From: a virus
Taxonomy: Duplodnaviria; Heunggongvirae; Uroviricota; Caudoviricetes
Length of the DNA: 64,000 bases
IMG/VR virus record: IMGVR_UViG_2513237361_000012
Span: 17,300-81,299 of that record
Direction: 5' to 3' (one strand)
Under the pieces are notes generated by a model that was given only the letters and a program-made list of their open reading frames with translations, was not told where the DNA came from and made no database searches. Positions 1,303 to 18,709 of this stretch are shown here, piece by piece (the first letter of the stretch is position 1; each line of letters begins with the position of its first letter). The position numbers and the translations under genes were made by a program.

Positions 1303-2264
1303 CAGTTATTCTCCTGTTTCGGTTTAGCGGCGAGGAACTCTTCCCCGGTAATACCCATGCTGCGGCACATCGCCAGTTCGGCGTCGGTCAGTGTCTGCGC
1401 GGGTTTATCCTTGCCCTGGCTGGGCTTGTCGTTGTTCACCAGCGGCTGTGCACCTTTGGTGTATTCCGCAAACTGTTTGCGGCCTTCTTCCGTGCGGCAG
1501 GTGGCAAGGAACATGTCACGGTTTGCCGGGGCCACTTTTCCGGCTTCGATGGCCGCATCCACAAGCGCTTCTGCTTCCTTCTCCTCCAGTTGCTGAAGGC
1601 GTTGTTCTGCGGTTTCGGCACGGTTCAGTGCCAGATTGTGGGTTTCCACCGGTACAAACTTCGTCAGGTCAGGTGTCTGTGCGCGGTTCAGCGCCACCTG
1701 TTCGTTCTCCTGAAGTTGTTTAATGGCAGCCACGGTATCGTCCACCGTGGCAGATTCAGCCAGCCCAAGCAGGCCGGTGATTTGCACAGGTACTGTCATC
1801 GGGTTTTTCTCCGTATTCAGTGCAGGAAAGTCCAGGTTAGGTTTGTTGGTCAGCCCGACGCTGGACAGGCGCGTCACCACACCCTCCGCGTCAAAGAAAA
1901 ACGCCGGGCTGTAATAGCGGTAACGGCGTTCGCTCAGCATCCACCGGGCGTACTCGCTCCAGACAACACGGCCTTCAATGGTGCCGCTGTCCGTCACGCG
2001 CAGTTCTTCCACCCAGCCATACGCCGGGGCTTCATCACCGCGTTGCCCTTTAATTTCGGTGGCGTGTTCAATGTCCACCGGAATTTTGATGTCGGACGAG
2101 CGGGTGACCACCTCATGCGGATTGCGGTTAATCCACGTCCGGCCATCGCGCCCGGTGAACTCACCCGCAGGGACGAGTTCAAGCCATTCCGGCAGTTGAG
2201 CAGGTGTCAGCTCAGGGATGGGTTCTGGCAGGGAAAAACACAGCGCCAGCAGTTCCGGTTGCAT
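1302..2264 (-). CDS. Mu I-like head protease/scaffold protein
   Basis: 320-aa ORF between F-like and T-like genes; resembles Mu-like prophage I protein. Confidence 0.75.
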   Translation of the reverse strand: MQPELLALCFSLPEPIPELTPAQLPEWLELVPAGEFTGRDGRTWINRNPHEVVTRSSDIKIPVDIEHATEIKGQRGDEAPAYGWVEELRVTDSGTIEGRVVWSEYARWMLSERRYRYYSPAFFFDAEGVVTRLSSVGLTNKPNLDFPALNTEKNPMTVPVQITGLLGLAESATVDDTVAAIKQLQENEQVALNRAQTPDLTKFVPVETHNLALNRAETAEQRLQQLEEKEAEALVDAAIEAGKVAPANRDMFLATCRTEEGRKQFAEYTKGAQPLVNNDKPSQGKDKPAQTLTDAELAMCRSMGITGEEFLAAKPKQENN

Positions 2265-2313
2265 GTCAGTCTCCGTCGTTTGGGGTTACCGACGGTAAGT
2301 ATGCGGAAGGCAG

Positions 2314-2338
2314 AAAAAAAGCCGGATTTACCGGCTTC
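2314..2338 (-). terminator. rho-independent terminator-like hairpin (GCCGG-ATTTA-CCGGC plus T-run on minus strand)
   Basis: Perfect 5-bp GC stem followed by T7 on the minus strand; the identical 26-nt element recurs at 10047..10070. Confidence 0.5.
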
Positions 2339-2477
2339 ACTGAAAACGGGGAAATACCCCCTTCAAAACCCCTTCAAAAACGCCACAGCATCTTCAAAAA
2401 CGTCAGAATGCACATTCACGCCATCAGAATAAAAAACGCGTTTCTGATGCGTTTCAGGGGGATTTACGGCGGGAGGG

Positions 2478-3299
2478 TTACTCACTGTCAAAACGGGCCT
2501 GTTTTGTCGCCAGCTGGCGCGCCAGCTCCTGCTCACGGTTTATGCCGGGATTGTAGTTCCAGCCCGGATCAATCCCTTCCGGCACATCTTCCTCTTCGCC
2601 CGTGCGTTTGTTCACCCAGCGGACAGTTCTGATTTCCGGCGCTTCGGTGTGAATGGTGCCCTGTGCCGCCAGTTGCGCATATTCACCACGGCTGACCTGA
2701 CGGATGGTGCATTTGCAGCCCCAGCCGTTAGGGGCGAAATGCGTCTGCCAGAACGGGTGGTCTACAGGCAGACACAGACGCGCCCATTTCACATGCTCCG
2801 CCCGGTGGTCGCGGGATGGCCCCAGCTCGTAAATCAGATACGGCATGGCCCGCTTTGTCCGTTGAATGCGTTCCCACTGGCCCGCCGCGCGGGCGGTGCG
2901 CATGTTGGTATCGTAAATCGTGCGGAGGCGGCGGTCGCTGCCCAGCTGTACGGTTCGGGTTTCGCCCGTCAGCGGATCATCCATCTCCTGTACGCCCCAC
3001 CATCCGCGTTTTATCAGCAGCGGTTGCAGCGCCTCCCGGAACTCGCTGAACGTCTGCCCGCTTTGCAGGGCGTCTTCCACAAGGGCTTTCACATCCGACA
3101 ACAAATCCAGTTGCAGCATTTTTGCCACGGTGAAGCTGTTCCGGTGTTCTTCCCGCCATACATCCCGGTAATCAAAACCGGGGCGCAGCTTCTTCGCCTT
3201 CAGCCACGCCAGCGCCTCTTTCGGGATGAGAGTTTCACGCATGACCGGTGTCCCCCAGCGCACGCGCCTTAAAGCACACCTCCGCCAGTTGCAGGGCAA
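2478..3299 (-). CDS. Mu F-like (gp30) virion morphogenesis protein
   Basis: 273-aa ORF directly downstream of the portal gene, as in Mu; Mu F-like sequence character. Confidence 0.7.
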   Translation of the reverse strand: MPCNWRRCALRRVRWGTPVMRETLIPKEALAWLKAKKLRPGFDYRDVWREEHRNSFTVAKMLQLDLLSDVKALVEDALQSGQTFSEFREALQPLLIKRGWWGVQEMDDPLTGETRTVQLGSDRRLRTIYDTNMRTARAAGQWERIQRTKRAMPYLIYELGPSRDHRAEHVKWARLCLPVDHPFWQTHFAPNGWGCKCTIRQVSRGEYAQLAAQGTIHTEAPEIRTVRWVNKRTGEEEDVPEGIDPGWNYNPGINREQELARQLATKQARFDSE

Positions 3300-4805
3300 A
3301 GTCGTCCGCGTTCAGCGTTTCCTGAAGCTCAGGCAGGCGTTTCAGAAAGTCATCAAAACTGTCGCATTCCTGCGCCAGTGTCAGCACCGGGTTCGTGAAC
3401 GCCTCGCCGGTTTTCTGCCAGTCACGCAGGGCATCATCCACCATCTGTGCCAGTTCATCGGGGTGTTCCCGGTTCAGGGCGACGCGCTCGCGGTTCATCG
3501 CCACATCACCTGACATTCCGGCAGACACCGGATGCAGAACATCAGCCCCGTCGTCCGGTTCAGCCAGGCCGAACCGGTCCCGCAGCTCCGATTCCTGAAC
3601 CCGCATCCCCCGGTCAATCAGCGGCACCAGAGCATCTGTCAGCGCCTTCAGATCTTCCGCTTCACTGATACGCAGAACAACACGGGGGTAGTGTTCCTGT
3701 GGCCCGTAGTTGGCCTCGATGTAGGGCCGCACCAGATATTCATTCAGCGTGTTAGCCAGCTGCCGCGCGTCCCAGCGCACAATGTCCATGCGCACCTGAT
3801 TGTGCACGTCCGCCTGTGAACGCGAACTGCCGTTATCCGTGGTCATGGTCTGCCCCAGCACAGCCTTACTGATTTGCGCATCACACCATTCCGCCATTTC
3901 ACGGAACAGTGCGCCGCCGTTATTCCGGCTGGCGGTTTCCTTCATTTCCAGTTGCATGGACTGCGGAATGGCACACCCGGCATCCGAGGCAATGGAAGCA
4001 ATCGCATCAATCAGCACGCGGATTTGCTCCTCCGTGGCGTTGGGGCCGTATTTCCCCACCGTGACCGGAATGCCGAATTTTTCCGCAAATGCCCACCAGT
4101 CGCGCACGGTAAAGGATTTCAGCATGTACATCACCGCCACCAGACGGGCCAGACCGTTACGCAGCGGCAGACCGGATTTCAGACGCGGCTGGTGAACAAT
4201 GAATTTTCCCGGTGTCAGCGGTACGCCATCCACCGGTTCATCGTCAGTCAGCAGGCGGAACTGGCGCAGCGTGGGTTTTTCGGCTTTCAGAAAACGGGGA
4301 TCAACCCACTCATAATCACGGGGCACCCAGTGGTTGTTGCGGGTGTTCCACAAAATTTCACAGACCGCCACGCCTTTTCCCAGCCCGTCGAGCAGATCAA
4401 ACATCAGCTCAGGGATTTGCGGTGCCTCCATCAGTGCACGGATGGCGTCCGCCAGTTGCACGTCAGCATCGTCATCACTGGCGGCCACCACCACCGGTTC
4501 GATACCCGCCACCGTCAGCTTGCGGGTGCGCAGTACCGAGGCGTAATGCAAATCGCGTTCTTCCATCTCTTCAGCAAGGTAAAAAAATCACGCGTGATGC
4601 CGTCAGTAGCATTGCGCAGAATGCCTGCCAGCCTGCCGGGGTTCAGCCCGGAGGCGACGCTGATACCCGGCGAGGCCGAACGCACACCGGCATGACGCGG
4701 ACGGGCCTGTGCTTCGTTGAGCGCCTCTTTTTTCAGCGTGTCTTCCTCACCGGTTGCCGGGTTCAGCAGACGGCGAACGGCCCCGGCCAGTTGTTTCAGG
4801 TTCAC
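3235..4805 (-). pseudogene. Mu gp29-like portal protein, split by a frameshift into ORFs 4515..4805 (N-terminal 96 aa) and 3235..4566 (443 aa)
   Basis: Two overlapping ORFs in different frames; adding one base to the A7 tract at ~4581..4587 joins them into one ~520-aa reading frame. Confidence 0.55.
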
Positions 4806-6337
4806 AGTAAACCTCCCTCATTTTTCAGGCCGCGCGTCAGCTTCATCTGGCGGCGCGCGTTGCGTTCTTCCGGTTTCGCCGGGCGGTTCAGGCGGTGCAA
4901 CTCGTAACGGTGGCAGTCATCCTTGCTGGCAAGGAAGCCCAGGAAAATGGCCACAGCGGCGTCGCCGTGACGTTTGTGACCGTCGCTGCCTTTGGTTCGT
5001 GAATCATCAATGCCGGGAACGCCACGCAGTAACTGAATGGCTCCGAGGTCATTGATCACGTCTTCATGCTTCGGAAGGATCAGCTCATCATCTTCAAACG
5101 CCGCACGGAAACGGGGCATGTTTTCGCGGTAAAACGCCACGGACAGCATCACCTGTTCCACTTCATCGCCGTACCGCTCTGCCGCCTGTTCTGCCAGATA
5201 CTGACCATTCCCCCGCGCATCCATTTTGATGCCGTCACGGCGGGGCAGACGATCGCAAAGCCAGAACAGCACCTGCTCCTGCTGTTTAAACGGCACATTG
5301 CCAAGCTCAACCAGGAACGGCACCTCGCGGGTGGTGTCATCGTTCACCGTCACCGGGGCCAGTACGGTCAGGTCACCCGAACGCGCAAAGTCTTCCCCCA
5401 GACAGTGGCGCAGGTTCTTCGGGAGTTTTTCCAGTTCAGGGCGCACCACTGTTTCCAGCCATTCCCGGATATCTGCCCGGCGCTGGCTTTCCGTCAGTGC
5501 GTTAAATTCCGGTGTGCCGGTAAAGCGCAACACTTTCCCGGTGCCACGGGCCGCACGTTCACGCAGTGAGCGGGGGATATACGTGCCGCCGCCGTTTTTC
5601 GGGACGCAGTAATACTCCTCCAGCGCGTCTTCGCGGGTGGCGGTATTTCGCAGCAGGCCTTCTTTCCATTCCGCCTCGGCTTCCGGTGACCACACCATGC
5701 CGCGCACCTGACAGATACGTCGGTACAGCCCGTCATTGCAGGCGTCGTCCAGCGTGATGGTGTGAATGCTGTAATCTTTTTTGCCCGCGCGGCTTTCCTG
5801 AATAAGCTGATTAAACAGGTTGTCCACGCCGTCATGGGTGGAAATAAGGCGAATTTTGCCGCCCCATGTTTTCAGCGGCAGCACCGCCTTCAGCAGCTCG
5901 TCCAGTTTTTCATGGAACGCGGCCTCGTCGATGGTGACATTCCCCTGCATCCCGCGAATGTTGCTCGGGTTGCTGGACAGTGCCTTGACCTTAAAACCGC
6001 TGGCGAAGTACACGACGAACGTCAGAATGTCCTTGTCTTCGTCGGTGATCACTTCCTCGCAGATTTCTTCCGCTGCCGCATTAAACGCTTTCGCCCACAT
6101 CGCCACGGCGTCGATAAATTCGCGGGCCATCTCCTTATTCGAACCGATATAAAAGTGATCGCGCCCGCCGTCTTCCTTCTTCAGCGATGCCGTCAGTGCC
6201 GCATCTGCCGCCTCCGCCCAGGTTAAACCGGTACGGCGGGATTTCTCGGCGATTTTCAGGTCGGCATCATCCGCCACCCAGCGTTTCTGATACGGCAGCA
6301 GAACATCATATTCACTGAACGTGTCCATTTGTGTCAT
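4802..6337 (-). CDS. terminase large subunit (Mu gp28-like)
   Basis: 511-aa ORF between small-terminase-like and portal genes; terminase-like sequence character. Confidence 0.8.
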   Translation of the reverse strand: MTQMDTFSEYDVLLPYQKRWVADDADLKIAEKSRRTGLTWAEAADAALTASLKKEDGGRDHFYIGSNKEMAREFIDAVAMWAKAFNAAAEEICEEVITDEDKDILTFVVYFASGFKVKALSSNPSNIRGMQGNVTIDEAAFHEKLDELLKAVLPLKTWGGKIRLISTHDGVDNLFNQLIQESRAGKKDYSIHTITLDDACNDGLYRRICQVRGMVWSPEAEAEWKEGLLRNTATREDALEEYYCVPKNGGGTYIPRSLRERAARGTGKVLRFTGTPEFNALTESQRRADIREWLETVVRPELEKLPKNLRHCLGEDFARSGDLTVLAPVTVNDDTTREVPFLVELGNVPFKQQEQVLFWLCDRLPRRDGIKMDARGNGQYLAEQAAERYGDEVEQVMLSVAFYRENMPRFRAAFEDDELILPKHEDVINDLGAIQLLRGVPGIDDSRTKGSDGHKRHGDAAVAIFLGFLASKDDCHRYELHRLNRPAKPEERNARRQMKLTRGLKNEGGLL

Positions 6338-10076: not shown

Positions 10077-10526
10077 TTAAGGGCGTCGTGGCGGACGACG
10101 AACGGGATGAGGCAGATTCGGGGAGTGGTAAAACAAATCCGGCTGGTATTTATTACGCTCCAGACGTCGCATCCGTTTGATGGCCTTGTAGACAGTTTTA
10201 TATGTCACTCCGTAACGCTGAACCAGTTCAGGAATATTATGGCCGTTAAAATCACGCCAGATACGCATATCCCGGACAAGATTCTCCAGAATATTCCCCC
10301 TCGGAACATAAACCTGCATCCCGCCGATATGGCGACAAATCGCCACAACCAGCTCAAGGGAATGGGCAGGGTCTGCGCCAATCCGGGCCAGCTCTTTACG
10401 CAGCAGTGCGTTCAGTTCAGAAAGTAACGCCGGATAAGCGGTGTTTTCCTGATAATCATGAAGGTATTCCAGAACGCTGTCGTCCCGGAGGTCTTCGAAT
10501 AAATCCTGCTCTTTCATCTGTTTCAT
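10077..10526 (-). CDS. mor: Mor/C-family transcriptional activator
   Basis: 149-aa protein with Mor/C-like C-terminal HTH region (YGVTYKTVYKAI); positioned after gemA as in Mu. Confidence 0.75.
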   Translation of the reverse strand: MKQMKEQDLFEDLRDDSVLEYLHDYQENTAYPALLSELNALLRKELARIGADPAHSLELVVAICRHIGGMQVYVPRGNILENLVRDMRIWRDFNGHNIPELVQRYGVTYKTVYKAIKRMRRLERNKYQPDLFYHSPNLPHPVRRPPRRP

Positions 10527-11074
10527 ACAGCAATTCTCCCGCTGTTTCGTGCGCGGGCATATGCACTGGTCATTGCATCATAGCCGCGCAGTTCCCGCCC
10601 GGTTTCGCTCACAGGTAAAGGCACACCATGTCGGACAAAGGCTTCCCGGATGCAGCGCATATGCCACTGTTTGAGCGTTTCGAGCACAACATGCAACGAT
10701 TCCCCGTGACACCAGGCCAGCGTGGAAACACCCTGACCACCATTACGTCTGGCCGTCAGGCGTTCAACGTATTTGTCCAGCGCGGCGTCGCTGATATCGG
10801 AGACGAAACCATCAAGAAACATCTGCTGCCAGATTTTATAAATCTTCTCGCGCGGTGTGACATGCTCCTTAAAGCGACGGCGGGGATGTTTTTTCTGCTT
10901 CTTAAAACCGCGCTCTTTCATGGCATCGAGCACCTGTTCCAGTTGTGCGACAGTCAGTTCGCGGCAACTGGTCTTGCCTGTGCACTGCACCAGAAAGGCG
11001 CGGTAAGTGTCATCGTCGAGTTGTAGATCACGACGGGCAACATGAATTAACTTAATAAGCGATGTGCGACTCAT
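10523..11074 (-). CDS. gemA: GemA (Mu gp16)-like protein
   Basis: Start taken at MSRTSLIK (aa 53 of the track ORF); DUF1018/GemA-like sequence; position before mor. Confidence 0.65.
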   Translation of the reverse strand: MSRTSLIKLIHVARRDLQLDDDTYRAFLVQCTGKTSCRELTVAQLEQVLDAMKERGFKKQKKHPRRRFKEHVTPREKIYKIWQQMFLDGFVSDISDAALDKYVERLTARRNGGQGVSTLAWCHGESLHVVLETLKQWHMRCIREAFVRHGVPLPVSETGRELRGYDAMTSAYARARNSGRIAV

Positions 11075-11104
11075 TTTGTCACCTCTCATATTAAGGAATG
11101 AGAT

Positions 11105-11509
11105 ATGAAAATTGATTACGATGAACTGGCAAGAATCCTTGATACTTTCCTGAATGCAGACAGCGCATTTATTACCCTTAAGGATGTTGGAATCGACACA
11201 ACCGACGATGAAGATAAACTGATATTTCATTTATTACTGCTCGTCGAAAATGGTCTTATCGGTAACAGAGAACTGCAAACTGGCACCCCGGAGTGCATCG
11301 GTCTGAAGTTCACCACAACAGGTATTGGCTGGCGAAACGTACCAATAAGGCTGACTCAGGACGGACATGATTTTGCCAATGCATTGCATCAAAAACCTAT
11401 TCTTGAACGAATCAAAAAAGAATTTGCCGAAGCCCCGTTTGATGTTGTCAAAGACCTCGGCAAGGGGTTTTTAACTCAGTTATTTAAAAAGAAACTCGGT
11501 ATTGAATAA
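11105..11509 (+). CDS. hypothetical protein on the opposite strand within the Mu early region
   Basis: 134-aa ORF with RBS AAGGAA upstream; opposite orientation to the whole early operon. Confidence 0.45.
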   Translation: MKIDYDELARILDTFLNADSAFITLKDVGIDTTDDEDKLIFHLLLLVENGLIGNRELQTGTPECIGLKFTTTGIGWRNVPIRLTQDGHDFANALHQKPILERIKKEFAEAPFDVVKDLGKGFLTQLFKKKLGIE

Positions 11510-11815
11510 CTCCTTACTCATTCGCTGTAGCACATCAAGGGCGGCAACTGCCGCCACTTTATCCTGACCGGCAATGATTTTTCGTAATTCCTCAATAATC
11601 CAGGCATGGCTTAATGATTCAGCAATCATCGTGCGTTTTTCTGAAATTAAATTTTCTCTGGCCTGCTCATAGTGCTGGTATACAACATTATCCAGAAAAT
11701 AATTTACATCTTGTTCTGACATGCCACTGGAAATTAAGGTTGCAGCCATTAAATCAGCATCAGTAATCATCTGTATTTTCATTTCGTAATACCTCTTCGC
11801 AATAAAAGACTTCAT
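11480..11815 (-). CDS. hypothetical Mu semi-essential-region protein
   Basis: 111-aa ORF in early operon. Confidence 0.35.
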   Translation of the reverse strand: MKSFIAKRYYEMKIQMITDADLMAATLISSGMSEQDVNYFLDNVVYQHYEQARENLISEKRTMIAESLSHAWIIEELRKIIAGQDKVAAVAALDVLQRMSKELFNTEFLFK

Positions 11816-11949
11816 TGGGATAACGTTTTTGTATGCGCTCCATCACCTGCATACATGCCTGCTCTGTGGGCCAGATTTTTTCCGTTACCGGAATGGCATC
11901 GCAGGCATCATTCCCACAAGTGCCAACCAGCAGGACAAAGCCAATTGAC

Positions 11950-12489
11950 TTAATCATGCTCGCTGATTTCCTGTGTTTCCGCCGGAACCGGTGAATAATC
12001 AAGAATGAGATAGCGCAGGACGTGGTCGGTGATATTCCAGCCACTGGAACCACAAATAAAGCGCCCCAGCCGGATATCGATATACGCCATCACAAAACGG
12101 GGCATCCCCTGTTTGCACATCTCGTCATCCACTTCAGCAACGATGTAAACCGACTCGCAGGTCAGTACGCCTGTCGCAAATTCTTTTGCCAGTGCCGGAA
12201 TGGCATTGCCTTCCAGCCAGGGCAAAGAGCGGCGGAACGCGCACCATTGAGCATCATCAACAGCGGGGTGCTCCGTTGCGTTTCGTCTTACAGGAGGCGT
12301 CGGACGAGGGCGCGGAACGTCATAAAATCCGTTGCATTCAGTGAGAACTCCGGCATCAACCGCATCACGCAGGAAATACACCATTGAGGAAGGTGGCATC
12401 TTCATTTTTTCAGCCAGAACGCCACAGGTCAGACGCCCGTAACCCCGTAGTAATGTGCTGACACCGTTCAGAATTTTTGCATCAATCAT
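11950..12489 (-). CDS. hypothetical Mu semi-essential-region protein
   Basis: 179-aa ORF in early operon. Confidence 0.35.
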   Translation of the reverse strand: MIDAKILNGVSTLLRGYGRLTCGVLAEKMKMPPSSMVYFLRDAVDAGVLTECNGFYDVPRPRPTPPVRRNATEHPAVDDAQWCAFRRSLPWLEGNAIPALAKEFATGVLTCESVYIVAEVDDEMCKQGMPRFVMAYIDIRLGRFICGSSGWNITDHVLRYLILDYSPVPAETQEISEHD

Positions 12490-12586
12490 TTTTATTTCTC
12501 AGATATCAGATTCAGGCGCGAGCAATCCCCTGACGCATCGCGCCATAATTAAAAGAAAGTGAATTAATTAAATATTCGTGGTGGTA

Positions 12587-13111
12587 TTAAATACCGGCTT
12601 CCTGTTCAAACGGAATAATAGAAAAATCTTCAATACCTGATTTGACTGTAATTCCGGCAACACCTGCGACCGCTTTCGGTTCCAGTAAAATCGCTTCCTT
12701 GTTGATTTCCTGTTTCGTGCGAATAAAGCGTTGCAGGCCAAGACGCTCCAGCGTTTCCATCACCGCATCCACACCGCGAATACTTACCGATGGTGGGCGC
12801 TGACGCCATGACACATCACCGGTTACCAGGTTTGCCGTCTTCACCTTGCCGCCGTTCGTCAGTTCGTCACGGTTCGCTTCACACCACCCCTGAACGCCTT
12901 TTGAAAGGGTTTCAATACTGGTTTTAAGGGGTGCAATCTGTGAGGCGTATTTCTCCGTAATCTCAGCGATAGCGTCATTCATCTCCGTTTCAAGCCGTGC
13001 CGCTTCGCGTTGCAGGTCACCAATCCGGCGAATATCACATACCACGGCATCGCGGGATTGTGGAACATAAGCCGCTGCGGCGTTCTTGATTCGTTTTGCT
13101 GGTTTAGCCAT
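12587..13111 (-). CDS. gam: host-nuclease inhibitor Gam (Mu-type)
   Basis: 174-aa protein; size, position and sequence character match Mu Gam. Confidence 0.75.
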   Translation of the reverse strand: MAKPAKRIKNAAAAYVPQSRDAVVCDIRRIGDLQREAARLETEMNDAIAEITEKYASQIAPLKTSIETLSKGVQGWCEANRDELTNGGKVKTANLVTGDVSWRQRPPSVSIRGVDAVMETLERLGLQRFIRTKQEINKEAILLEPKAVAGVAGITVKSGIEDFSIIPFEQEAGI

Positions 13112-14625: not shown

Positions 14626-15579
14626 TTACTGCCAGTTCAGTAACTTAGGGTTGCTGTAAGCCTCCTTAAAAGCCGCTTTAATGTGACTTTTATTCAGGGA
14701 TGAACCAGCACCTTTCGCCGCCAGCCACGCATGATTCAGTGTGTGAGTTAATACACGCAATCCCCCGGGCTTTTCGGCTACCCTCATCAACAGATCCAGC
14801 TCATCTTCCTGTGTTACTCCCCATGCTTTGGCTACAGCCATCACGTCGGTTTTTTTCACTTTGCGCAGTTGTTTCGTCATGGCAAAACGGCTGAACAGAC
14901 GGGCCAGCTCATCAGTCCCACGACGGGTGGCATCCGCCATCTGTTTCGGGTTGCCAATTAAAACCATCCCCACGCCAGTGGCATCCTGAATGGCGCGTAA
15001 TTGCTCCAGACCATCCACACTTAAGTGATCAGCTTCATCAATAATCAGCAGGGGGTTAACACGGCCACTAATTTCTTTACCACCGCCCAGTTTTCTGCGA
15101 ATGGCGCGGGTTATATTCCCCTTATTTCTTCCCGGATTATTAATTTCCAGCGCATATGCTATTTCAAGGAGACATTCCGTAACGCTCGAATGTGCCGGAG
15201 CAAGCGTCACCATCCAGGCATTAGCTGTTTTGCGGCAATATTCCCGTGCAGCAAAAGTTTTGCCGACACCCGGTACGCCAACAACAACACTGATAATCCC
15301 GAGTGAGCGCACTGTTTTAAACAGCTCATGCAAATCACAAAATGTCTGGGTCTTCACAACGCCGGGGGCACCTGACAAATTCTGCCCTTTTTGCCAGACC
15401 CGATACCATTCCTGTAATTTGTCATGCATGCCTTCAACATTGCCTCTGTACTTTCCTTTACGAAGATCAGAAAGTGTTGCCGGAGACATTCCGGCCTCAT
15501 CAGCAATATCTTCCTGGGACTTGTCGCCCTCGTTAATCAAAGCGTTAATAGTGTTGAAAACATCATCAATATCAGTCAT
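14626..15579 (-). CDS. B: MuB-like transposition ATPase
   Basis: N-terminal HTH, Walker A GVPGVGKT, Walker B LLIIDEAD; follows the transposase gene. Confidence 0.85.
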   Translation of the reverse strand: MTDIDDVFNTINALINEGDKSQEDIADEAGMSPATLSDLRKGKYRGNVEGMHDKLQEWYRVWQKGQNLSGAPGVVKTQTFCDLHELFKTVRSLGIISVVVGVPGVGKTFAAREYCRKTANAWMVTLAPAHSSVTECLLEIAYALEINNPGRNKGNITRAIRRKLGGGKEISGRVNPLLIIDEADHLSVDGLEQLRAIQDATGVGMVLIGNPKQMADATRRGTDELARLFSRFAMTKQLRKVKKTDVMAVAKAWGVTQEDELDLLMRVAEKPGGLRVLTHTLNHAWLAAKGAGSSLNKSHIKAAFKEAYSNPKLLNWQ

Positions 15580-15654: not shown

Positions 15655-17742
15655 TCAGGCCAGCGGATCATCTTCTTCCTGCATGGCAAAAAGCTTTTGC
15701 ATCCCCAGTCTGAAATCGCGTTCAAATTCTTCGTCATGCTCTTCTTCATATTCCGGTTGCTGAACTGCCACCACATTCCCAACCGGGCGATAAACATTAT
15801 CCAGCCAGGGTTCAGCTTGTTTGTGTTCCAGAATCTGAATACCTTCATCTTCAGCATCACGAATTTTTTCCTCAGCGCGTTTGCGCATTCCTTTAATACG
15901 CTGTTGCTGTTTGTGATATTCCGCACTGACAGGGAAGGCTGCGCGTTTATTGCCGTTCCATATCGCCTCACAGATAAAGCTGCCGTCCTTGCGACGTACC
16001 GTAATTCGCTCGGCGTCATGAATGTCATAACTGATAAGCACTTTGCGACCGTGTTCGTCACGCAACTCCGGCGCGTAGTAAATATTGTTCAGCCACTGGA
16101 TTTCGCAGCGTCTTACTGGACGCTCCACCATCGGGCGGAACATGTCGCGCAGCTCAAGATCACTCAGCCACTCAATTTCGGTGTCTTCTTCTGCCAGGCG
16201 TTTTTTTCTGAACTCTGCCGGGCTGTAATGCCGCCCGTTCGGTTTCATCGGCAGCTCAGAATGCGGGCGGTTGTTGTACCATTCCACGCCTTCACGAATA
16301 GCCTCAATAAGCTCCGCCCACGATGGCAGCTCGCGCATTGCAGCTTTCTGGCGGTCGTTCAGAGGCTTGTCCTGTTGCAGGGCGTTAAACGCTGAACGCA
16401 GATCACGGTTAAGTACACGCAACGATTCCCGGTCAGCACCCTTGCCAAAATAGGTGCGATACCTCCTGGCTATACGCATCGGCAGTGTCCGGTTCAGGCG
16501 TTCAATAATGCCGCGCCCCTGTGGATTACCGGCAATACCTGTTGGGTGTTTAATCCCCAGGCGGGGCAGAATACCCACGACCTCTTTGTCCAGCATGTCA
16601 GCCGTTTCACCAGAACCGTTATCCGAGTAATACAGAAACGGTTTTCCGTGGTTGCGAATGCCGTGCTGTATCGCACCGGCAACGGCGAACACGTTCTCGG
16701 CAAGGTCAAGACTCCAGCCAACAACAAACCGGGTTCCACCGTCGATCACAAATGTGACTTCCGGTGAGAATGGACGCCCGTGGATCGGATGTGCACATTT
16801 CAGCTTCATACCGTGACCGTCACCAATCCAGACATAATTCACCGGCATAGCTGTCCAGTCGCGGCGGGTGAATCCTTCAAGCTGACGGTATTCACTGCCG
16901 GTAACGCGCCCTTTTTGTTTCACCACTTCCGGCAATTTCTTCATGGCATAACGAACCACATCGTAAGAGGGCATCACCTCCAGCATGTACGGTTCGTCCG
17001 CATGGCGACACTGCCATTCCGCGACAAAATCCTCGTAGGCTTCAGACATAGGTCTGCCGTTCACCTGGCGATACTGCGCCAGAAACTCAGGTAGCCAGCT
17101 AATTTGTTCCGGTTTTATTTCGTCGCGTTTTCCTGGTGCCAGTAACAGCAGCCGTTCTGCGGCGTTCTGTGACTGGTTGTACTTCAGCACCCACTGATAA
17201 AGTGGGTCACGACTGATGGTGCGATTAGCGCCACGTTTTGCATTGGCGTTAACTGCGGCCTGTTGCAGGCGTTCCGGTAGTTCACCTTTACGGGCTTTTT
17301 CGACAAGAAAGTTAATGGCTTTCAGTCGCCCGAGATCACCCTCGCTTTCCAGCTTCAGCACTTCCACTACCAGCGCAGCTCTTGCTTCAGATACCCGACG
17401 CTGATTTTCGGTCAGCGCATTCAGGCGTTCTTCCATCAGTTGTGGCGAACCGCGATATGCTTCGATTGCCTGGACAGCATCAGGATTGCGCGCCTTCCTG
17501 GTAACGACCTGAACTTCGGAAACGTTGTTCTCCGTAGCTACCAGTTGTTCCACATAACGTTCACGCAGCGCCTTTTGAGTCGCTTCCGGCAGACAATCAA
17601 TGTGGTACTCAATGGCTTTTGTACCTGCTCGTTTGCGTCGAAAATGCTCTGATGAAGCCAATTTTTTTATAGTGTACCTCACACCTTGCGCACTTCCCGG
17701 CATACCAGGCAGCCCCACGAGTTCGTTGACAGACACAAACAT
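15655..17742 (-). CDS. A: MuA-like DDE transposase
   Basis: 695-aa protein with MuA-like N-terminal DNA-binding region and DDE core; position between ner and B. Confidence 0.9.
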   Translation of the reverse strand: MFVSVNELVGLPGMPGSAQGVRYTIKKLASSEHFRRKRAGTKAIEYHIDCLPEATQKALRERYVEQLVATENNVSEVQVVTRKARNPDAVQAIEAYRGSPQLMEERLNALTENQRRVSEARAALVVEVLKLESEGDLGRLKAINFLVEKARKGELPERLQQAAVNANAKRGANRTISRDPLYQWVLKYNQSQNAAERLLLLAPGKRDEIKPEQISWLPEFLAQYRQVNGRPMSEAYEDFVAEWQCRHADEPYMLEVMPSYDVVRYAMKKLPEVVKQKGRVTGSEYRQLEGFTRRDWTAMPVNYVWIGDGHGMKLKCAHPIHGRPFSPEVTFVIDGGTRFVVGWSLDLAENVFAVAGAIQHGIRNHGKPFLYYSDNGSGETADMLDKEVVGILPRLGIKHPTGIAGNPQGRGIIERLNRTLPMRIARRYRTYFGKGADRESLRVLNRDLRSAFNALQQDKPLNDRQKAAMRELPSWAELIEAIREGVEWYNNRPHSELPMKPNGRHYSPAEFRKKRLAEEDTEIEWLSDLELRDMFRPMVERPVRRCEIQWLNNIYYAPELRDEHGRKVLISYDIHDAERITVRRKDGSFICEAIWNGNKRAAFPVSAEYHKQQQRIKGMRKRAEEKIRDAEDEGIQILEHKQAEPWLDNVYRPVGNVVAVQQPEYEEEHDEEFERDFRLGMQKLFAMQEEDDPLA

Positions 17743-17744
17743 TT

Positions 17745-18017
17745 TTACGCCACCTTACGAACGTAGCGGCTGGGCCAGATCTCCTCCGGAGCCACACCGA
17801 TAGCATCAGCAATAATGCGCTCATACTTAGGGCATTTGCGGTACAAGGCATTCTTTAAAGAATCCTTGTTTAAACCTGCTTCAACTGATAGTGAACGCAA
17901 AGTAAAGCCTTTCACATGCACCGCAGCGACAACATGTGCCGGGTGCCAGTCCTGTTTTACAACTTCATTTATAGACATCATTCGTTTATCCTTAAAAGTT
18001 ATCTGCGCGGATAACAC
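17745..18017 (-). CDS. ner: Ner-like DNA-binding regulator
   Basis: 90-aa Ner-family HTH protein immediately upstream of A. Confidence 0.75.
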   Translation of the reverse strand: MLSAQITFKDKRMMSINEVVKQDWHPAHVVAAVHVKGFTLRSLSVEAGLNKDSLKNALYRKCPKYERIIADAIGVAPEEIWPSRYVRKVA

Positions 18018-18121: not shown

Positions 18122-18709
18122 ATGAATCATACAGTTAAGAGAAAAGAAAAAAACGATAAAAAAGAAAGTGATTTTTCTTTTCCAGCATTTCAAAAAGAAA
18201 GCATCAAGGAACGACTGGCAAAGTTAATGCGTGGTCGGTCTAAAACCGCAGTTGCGAAAGCGTGGGGGCTTCCATTCTCTACACTTAATAACTATTTTGA
18301 GAAAGATGCGATACCATCTCTACAAGTAGCTAGCCAGATAGCTTTTGCAGAAGGAGTAAGTATTGATTGGCTTGTTTTTGGTAAGGTAGAGGCAGAGTCG
18401 TTACATCCTCAAACAGATAACAACGCCCAGAACCAACCACTCGATATCACACAACAACGCCTCCTGGCTATTCTGAGTGCCCTGGAATCACCGGAGGCTG
18501 AGCGGTTGTCCAAACTCCTGGCACTAAATGGAGCCAAATACTTGTCGCGCTTACTGGAACCTGAGAACCAAGAGTTGATCCAATTAGAAGGGCGAAAACG
18601 AGCAGCGGCACTACTTCTAGATAATCTATCTGATGATAGAGTTAGAGAGATTTTGGCAGAAATTGAAGCTAGTAATCTCTCGCACAGTTTAAAAGCGAAG
18701 GCAGGTTGA
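18122..18709 (+). CDS. c: Mu-type c repressor
   Basis: 195-aa protein divergent from ner, with HTH segment (KTAVAKAWGLPFSTLNNY); operator region between c and ner. Confidence 0.7.
   Translation: MNHTVKRKEKNDKKESDFSFPAFQKESIKERLAKLMRGRSKTAVAKAWGLPFSTLNNYFEKDAIPSLQVASQIAFAEGVSIDWLVFGKVEAESLHPQTDNNAQNQPLDITQQRLLAILSALESPEAERLSKLLALNGAKYLSRLLEPENQELIQLEGRKRAAALLLDNLSDDRVREILAEIEASNLSHSLKAKAG

Follow-up and report, generated by a model that had tools for sequence, protein, structure and literature searches.

An open reading frame (ORF) that runs against the direction of the operon surrounding it raises the questions of whether it is a genuine gene, how it came to its present site and in which phase of the phage life cycle it would be expressed. 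These questions were addressed for a 134-codon ORF in the Mu-type prophage carried by the 64,000-nucleotide stretch of DNA analysed here (hereafter, the window). The ORF is encoded on the plus strand, and all other early genes are encoded on the minus strand. The preliminary description of this DNA proposed that the ORF was an independently expressed moron. In the Hendrix/Juhala sense, a moron is a piece of additional DNA that separates genes lying side by side in related phages and that has an atypical base composition (PMC4378225). The locus lies in the semi-essential region of Mu, which is among the least understood parts of a textbook phage.

Layout of the Early Region

The features of the locus are summarized in Table 1. 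The layout given in the preliminary description, namely, a plus-strand ORF of 134 aa with a good ribosome-binding site (RBS), located approximately 30 bp from the gemA start and converging on the next early gene, agreed with the coordinates. Moreover, the ner-like gene, MuA, MuB, Gam, gemA and mor were all located on the minus strand, as had been claimed, and a GH108 endolysin gene was also part of this minus-strand Mu-type region. The gemA start at 11074 was supported by homology and left 30 nt between the start codons of gemA and the ORF. This gap contained two back-to-back RBSs and nothing more. The stretch ctcatattaaggaatgagatATG at the Shine-Dalgarno sequence of the ORF was identical in the loci L011, L050 and L043. 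The longest ORF of the converging phrog_1988 gene extended to 11815, and its PHROG match was confined to residues 12–111.

Table 1. Features of the locus in the window, with strand and supporting evidence.
Feature	Position	Strand	Evidence or remark
ORF in question, CDS of 134 aa (DUF2513/phrog_585 winged-helix protein)	11105..11509	+	ATG start; ORF call, phrog_585 match, homologues, dN/dS, AF2
Shine-Dalgarno sequence AAGGAA, 6 nt 5' of the ORF ATG	11093..11098	+	seen directly in the sequence
gemA (gp16), divergent neighbour of the ORF	10523..11074	-	Pfam GemA 2e-33 (183-aa reading), phrog_286 4e-60
phrog_1988 gene, next early gene upstream in the operon, converges on the ORF	11480..11782	-	100 aa from M12; phrog_1988 2e-40
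Tail-to-tail overlap, 30 nt, codes the C-termini of the ORF product and the phrog_1988 protein	11480..11509	both	coordinates
Segment absent from relatives with an empty slot (indel cassette), replaced by 3 nt	11084..11481		blastn break points against L009 and L010
GC hairpin GGCGGCAACTGCCGCC, 30 nt past the ORF stop, poor U-tract	11540..11555	+	terminator-like scan match
mor	10077-10526	-	early operon, after gemA
Gam	12587-13111	-	early operon
MuB	14626-15579	-	early operon
MuA	15655-17742	-	early operon
ner-like gene	17745-18017	-	early operon
HTH_3 (Cro/CI-type) protein, 195 aa, at the repressor position	18122-18709	+	same strand as the ORF

The left end of the prophage was located at approximately 18951, abutting ybjI. 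The DNA beyond this point was approximately 90% identical to the ybjI-rcdA-ybjJ region of E. coli; hence, a non-coli Escherichia is the probable host of the prophage. The early region also contained a second variable segment, at 11900–12500, around a gp11-like gene (11950–12489, Pfam Gp11_C). The identity to L041–L043 dropped to 10–50% within this segment, whereas these loci were 88–99% identical to the window elsewhere.

Coding Evidence and Protein Family

The ORF is a genuine protein-coding gene. Its pairwise dN/dS values against eight homologues were 0.09–0.23, with synonymous sites at or near saturation, and the result was unchanged when only the non-overlapping codons 1–125 were used. Loss of the ORF in homologous regions would have spoken against the preliminary description, and a homology search found it kept. 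Phrog_585 matched over the full length (3.3e-23, residues 1–133 on profile positions 1–127/128). A total of 29 close homologues with 50–99% identity, named in their source as "DUF2513 domain-containing protein", were distributed over Escherichia, Salmonella, Citrobacter, Enterobacter, Edwardsiella, Pantoea, Serratia and Yersinia. An exhaustive search with the A1 profile yielded 356 clusters at 50% identity, nearly all of which were stand-alone proteins of 125–150 aa; the few longer ones carried no informative extra domain. The possibility of a shadow ORF of an opposite gene was rejected because no minus-strand ORF longer than 52 aa was present over 11084–11479. That the ORF is spurious or decaying and devoid of function is extremely improbable. 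Its dispensability in close relatives and the absence of functional, promoter or expression support would suit such a reading, but the full-length frame was retained across hundreds of clusters, the dN/dS values indicated constraint and the fold was predicted confidently.

Pfam PF10711 (DUF2513) was matched by 35 of the 57 sampled relatives at E ≤ 1e-3, with scores of 50.6 bits for P0077 and 48.4 bits for P0108, and no other family was matched. The window protein itself scored 18.7 bits (E 0.0022, residues 29–109), under the gathering threshold of 29.6 bits. Because it falls below the Pfam threshold and its relatives match DUF2513, the sequence comparisons place the window protein as a divergent branch of the DUF2513/YjcQ superfamily (phrog_585). 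The families DUF2513 and YjcQ (PF09639; PDB 2HGC) comprise uncharacterised phage and prophage winged-helix proteins. Compared with the 100-column PF10711 model, the window protein had approximately 40 additional helical residues at its C-terminus. A search of NCBIfam with the ORF product gave no match, and the component models of anti-phage defence systems in PADLOC-DB 2.0 gave nothing at E ≤ 1 for either the ORF or its phrog_1988 partner. Sequence searches of the PDB with two profiles returned noise only and no solved relative, and no Rfam family was detected in the whole window. No functional account of DUF2513, PF10711, YjcQ, Mu gp15 or Mu-like hotspots was found in the literature.

A Variable Slot Upstream of gemA

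The same position was compared in related Mu-like phages. In phage Mu, it is occupied by gp15 (Mup15, NP_050619), which lies between gene 14 and gemA on the opposite strand. The RefSeq record of D108 (NC_013594.1) leaves an unannotated gap of 376 bp between gene 14 and gemA, and this gap was found to hold an opposite-strand ORF of 119 aa with a good RBS (L001 3076–3435). The D108 ORF matched phrog_38610 at 8e-83 and, like Mu gp15, weakly matched phrog_32893. The three genes thus share the slot, the orientation and a 3' overlap with the upstream early gene, which was 62 nt in Mu (with gp14), approximately 53 nt in D108 (from the coordinates) and 30 nt in the window. They differ in length (88 aa for Mu gp15, 119 aa for the D108 ORF and 134 aa for the window ORF) and in PHROG (8747, 38610 and 585, respectively), and no sequence similarity was detected between Mu gp15 and the ORF product (BLASTP E 1.7). 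The upstream partners also differ, being phrog_6075 for Mu gp14 and phrog_1988 in the window. Hence, Mu gp14 and gp15 are unrelated to either window protein, yet they have the same convergent, 3'-overlapping layout.

The slot was empty in the prophages L009 and L010, the flanks of which were 96% and 93% identical to the window. In both, the upstream gene is longer by 11 codons (SGGHNEPHIPD) and runs into gemA by 23 nt. Among the E. coli Mu-like prophages, L011 carried the DUF2513 gene in the slot and L012 carried a gp15-like gene. The presence or absence of the ORF in related phages, which the preliminary description had named as a check, therefore varied as expected for an accessory gene: it was present in L011, absent in L009 and L010, and replaced by gp15 in L012 and Mu. 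The ORF was detectable by blastn in only 5 of 5426 complete E. coli genomes, and the gemA region was detectable in 77. According to these results, this position upstream of gemA serves Mu-family phages as a standard variable slot, and the insertion in the window is no isolated oddity. The slot, at which opposite-strand cargo has landed repeatedly, has four states (empty, gp15, the D108 ORF and the DUF2513 gene), and these states provide a set of natural, isogenic-like variants for testing phenotypes conferred by the prophage. The DUF2513 annotation of the gene and the location of Mu gp15 in the same slot were already known; the three- or four-state polymorphism of the slot and the mobile convergent pair described below are, modestly, the newer points.

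Just inside the empty slot, at 1653–1688 of L009 and likewise in L010, the sequence resembled an antisense DUF2513 C-terminus (TTTAAAAAT..GTTGAATAG). In view of this residual likeness, the empty state may be a deletion rather than the ancestral state. A further element of the slot was noted in the Salmonella Mu-like prophage L003 (3952–3971), where a GC hairpin (GGCGGTG..CACCGCC) followed by a T-run occurred on the early-operon strand between the slot gene and the gemA RBS. This terminator-like element within the early operon, just before gemA-mor, was also found in L015, L058 and D108, and the window was without it.

The phrog_1988 Partner and the Mobility of the Pair

The preliminary description treated the gene on which the ORF converges as ordinary operon content. 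A comparison of 76 related loci revised this point and identified the phrog_1988 gene as the usual convergent partner of the ORF. Of the 40 loci in the clade that shares at least 44% identity, 34 had a convergent phrog_1988 gene, at −35 to +19 nt from the match end. One fixed offset recurred across most Mu-like loci of the pair, and the overlap was 39 nt in annotated Salmonella and E. coli loci. Two common variants of the phrog_1988 protein (P0032 and P0039) occurred in the assembly collection in 308 and 895 blocks, respectively. Among the places listed, they were always followed by a convergent gene of 134 or 138 aa, and gemA lay 30 nt further on. The 138-aa allele is carried by E. coli SE11 and 22KM0354. 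For the phrog_1988 protein, AF2 gave an all-helical model with a low pTM of 0.36, and the search against NCBIfam gave only a sub-threshold GpsB match (22.8 bits, cut-off 91).

The pair was also observed away from the slot. In the Kluyvera Mu-like prophages L024, L078 and L071 (approximately 4000–6230), a DUF2513 gene and a weak phrog_1988-like partner were located between gemA and mor. In L072, L073, L075 and L076, the pair separated the spike gene from the wedge gene in the baseplate operon of a myovirus; these two genes abut in the uninterrupted operon of the related phage KLEP17-4. At the Kluyvera and baseplate sites, the phrog_1988 gene ran with the host operon and the DUF2513 gene ran against it. 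In Yersinia, single copies without the partner were found in a lambda-like tail operon, where they occupied the opposite strand and separated K from I. Moreover, the phages Chlobot and vB_YpM_39 had a co-oriented DUF2513-type gene without the partner, and approximately 25 distant marine gammaproteobacterial loci also had the gene without phrog_1988; no conserved neighbour was found among these distant loci. The antisense placement is not universal in the family because the distant homologues (32–43% identity) were co-oriented with their neighbours. The ORF and phrog_1988 together form a low-GC cassette that is usually tail-to-tail and also occurs at baseplate and gemA/mor sites.

Two further observations were made in these loci. 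In the Yersinia enterocolitica lambda-like prophage L006 (224–4843), a multi-gene island between K (JAB/NlpC) and I contained a DUF2513 gene and a 115-aa gene of the TonB_C/Rz-like-spanin family, with a bidirectional terminator (4457–4477) between them. The IMG/VR Mu-like contigs L048–L054 (approximately 2200–4420) had two Mor-family genes per locus, one adjoining gemA and the second approximately 1.2–1.8 kb downstream.

The base composition and divergence of the ORF were distinct from those of its flanks. The GC content was 0.41–0.43 for the ORF versus 0.52–0.55 in the flanks, and the GC trough (0.39–0.43) extended across approximately 11000–12000, including the phrog_1988 gene and a small gene at 11760–12053. 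In comparison with L042, dS was 0.034 for the ORF and 0.23–0.41 for gemA, mor and the partner. In comparison with L043, dS was 1.6 for the ORF and 0.45 for the phrog_1988 partner. Recombination break points fell between the ORF and the phrog_1988 gene. These values indicate that transfer of the ORF between phages has been independent of the flanking sequence. The possibility of an invertible segment was discarded because inverted repeats were not detected on either side.

The linkage of the two genes brings up an effector/antidote module, either toxin-antitoxin-like or of the exclusion/anti-exclusion type, in which the convergent overlap would make expression reciprocal between lysogeny and firing of the operon. 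The tight spacing of the partner in the 34 of 40 clade loci and the 134- or 138-aa gene found behind P0032 and P0039 at every place listed are consistent with such a module, as are the insertion of the pair as a unit in the baseplate operon that is intact in KLEP17-4, its occurrence between gemA and mor in Kluyvera and the low-GC trough that spans both genes. Mu gp14/gp15 also fits, since this pair, although unrelated to the window genes, occupies the corresponding site in an identical arrangement. The two genes are nevertheless separable: L009 and L010 have the partner without the winged-helix gene, the reverse applies to the Yersinia lambda-like loci and to every one of the approximately 25 distant loci, and the recombination break points lie between the two. 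No PADLOC or Pfam toxin or antitoxin match was obtained either, and such a module is considered unlikely. A bolder form of this idea, which is distinctly improbable, would make the ORF and phrog_1988 a mobile sense/antisense two-gene cassette of an undescribed kind, with an exclusion or regulatory factor acting in lysogeny and an antidote made upon firing of the lytic operon. Mu gp14/gp15 would then be an analogous, unrelated cassette, and the orphan phrog_1988 genes of L009 and L010 would be retained antidotes.

Predicted Structure of the ORF Product

The AF2 model of the ORF product had a pLDDT of 90.8 and a pTM of 0.82. In the model, a helix at the N-terminus precedes a winged-helix core, the wing of which is long, and the C-terminal part is made up of three helices. 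The protein, with a mass of approximately 15 kDa, is thus predicted to have a PadR/MarR-like winged-helix fold. The structure search suggested in the preliminary description was informative in this regard, in that the best PDB matches in Foldseek were the full-length MarR-family repressors BpsR, MexR, FabT and MarR; the E values were approximately 1e-2 and the probabilities were up to 0.99, with TM scores of only approximately 0.4. The fold search of BFVD returned solely uncharacterised viral winged-helix proteins. Across the wide family, H42, G66, R82, G87 and F90, which lie within the motifs "FH" and "RLTxxGHDF", were near-invariant.

PadR and MarR proteins are dimeric winged-helix transcription regulators, and the model has the winged-helix core and the terminal helices in common with them. 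The window protein differs from them in several respects. The Pfam PadR and MarR models matched nothing in it at E ≤ 0.1, and the TM scores were low, as given above. The model was without a helix at the place of the canonical HTH helix 2. The protein was mildly acidic (pI 5.2), with a net charge of −6 over residues 1–35 in its N-terminal half. Hence, DNA binding is made plausible by the predicted fold but is not assured, because the protein is acidic and helix 2 is missing from the model.

The fold and the position of the gene could also indicate a dedicated regulator of gemA-mor, i.e., a divergent PadR/MarR-type repressor that binds the upstream region of gemA and tunes the early-to-middle switch or the expression of gem in the prophage state. 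In approximately 27 loci, with GemA identities down to approximately 46%, the gene was divergent from GemA and approximately 30–70 nt away. Furthermore, an imperfect inverted repeat (11051–11066/11080–11095) straddled the gemA start. The left arm of this repeat, however, is gemA coding sequence and would be conserved regardless. A regulator specific to gemA was down-weighted because the same gene also occurs far from any gemA, in the tail and baseplate operons, and it lies downstream of gemA in Kluyvera. In addition, prophages with 93–96% identical flanks do without the gene, and the N-terminal half of the predicted winged-helix protein is acidic. This role was therefore judged to be rather improbable.

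Expression Signals and Orientation

The preliminary description proposed promoter prediction for the ORF, and such prediction gave no support to independent expression. A consensus scan of the window found no sigma-70-like promoter above chance on the plus strand upstream of the ORF, and on the relevant strand neither promoter nor terminator scans rose above the level of shuffled sequences, in the window or in the Salmonella, Yersinia and baseplate contexts. Only 30 nt separate the ORF from gemA, too few for a promoter; therefore, any promoter must lie within the gemA coding sequence. Past the ORF stop, the GC hairpin listed in Table 1 is a possible weak terminator of a plus-strand transcript, as judged from its sequence. 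It was also present in L042, L043, L011, L050, L003, L015 and L032 and not in L055, L016, L075 and L072. The conservation of the hairpin is ambiguous, as the conserved AAVAA codons of the partner occupy the same nucleotides. The ORF is on the strand of the repressor and antisense to the Pe operon, and this orientation is suggestive of expression from the prophage.

The orientation also bears on a role in the lytic phase. The ORF product could serve in counter-defence or in the takeover of the host, as other proteins from the semi-essential region of Mu do; it is small and mildly acidic, its gene lies within a group of early accessory genes that includes gam, and its rate and history are unlike those of its flanks. 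As an antisense gene, however, it is not expressible from Pe and has no evident plus-strand promoter, and its opposite-strand placement in the tail and baseplate operons argues against co-expression with lytic genes there as well. A lytic-phase function of this kind is hence very unlikely.

Proposed Role in the Lysogen

The ORF is very probably a real accessory gene of the moron kind. Most of the moron reading in the preliminary description was retained: the gene is real, it is present or absent between the same genes, its GC content is low, it has diverged independently of its flanks, and it is placed on the opposite strand in unrelated operons. Independent expression, the other part of that reading, gained no support from the promoter scans. 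The best explanation combines an accessory winged-helix gene with a mechanism that operates in the lysogen. Taken as a whole, with its observed and its proposed parts, it is only slightly favoured.

In the proposed mechanism, the gene should be produced mainly in the lysogen, while the early operon is silent, because it is oriented with the repressor and against the Pe-driven operon. The case for expression mainly from the prophage is evenly balanced. Lytic transcription, early or late, crossing the gene would shut it down through head-on transcription and antisense pairing. The product would act as a dimer, probably through its N- and C-terminal helices in the manner of PadR/MarR proteins, and the dimer would bind a nucleic acid or a protein partner and thereby confer an accessory benefit on the lysogen. 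This benefit would most likely be interference with superinfecting phages or a regulatory function. An exclusion or defence-type function of the product, considered separately, is tentative and rather doubtful. The operon-sense phrog_1988 gene would possibly be the lytic-phase counterpart. The repeated antisense placement of DUF2513/phrog_585 genes in early, tail and baseplate operons and their linkage to phrog_1988 are testable leads; if they fail, the gene would simply be one more hypothetical moron.

Comparison with Known Systems

The locus resembles the lambdoid morons in that extra DNA of low GC content is inserted where L009 and L010 have none, and homologues of the window gene are found inside a lambda-like tail operon. 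One moron of HK97, gp15, is described as a superinfection-exclusion gene (Cumby et al., 2012, as reported in PMC9936078 and PMC4378225). Classical morons have a recognisable promoter and terminator, and many of them are co-oriented with the operon. The window gene, by comparison, has no detectable promoter, is antisense and is usually accompanied by a second gene.

A gene on the repressor strand of the Pseudomonas transposable phage Fc02 (olg1/sie1) overlaps gene 10 of the early operon. Lysogens of Fc02 transcribe this repressor-strand gene, and exclusion of superinfecting phages was measured for both genes (PMC9936078). The likeness to the window lies in a transposable phage with a repressor-strand gene that overlaps an early-operon gene on the other strand. 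The Fc02 gene differs in its position beside the repressor and in its extensive rather than 3'-terminal overlap, and the proteins are unrelated. Furthermore, expression and exclusion are measured findings for Fc02 and predictions for the window locus. The opposite-strand exclusion genes of Fc02 are the closest functional analogy in the literature, as a resemblance and not a homology.
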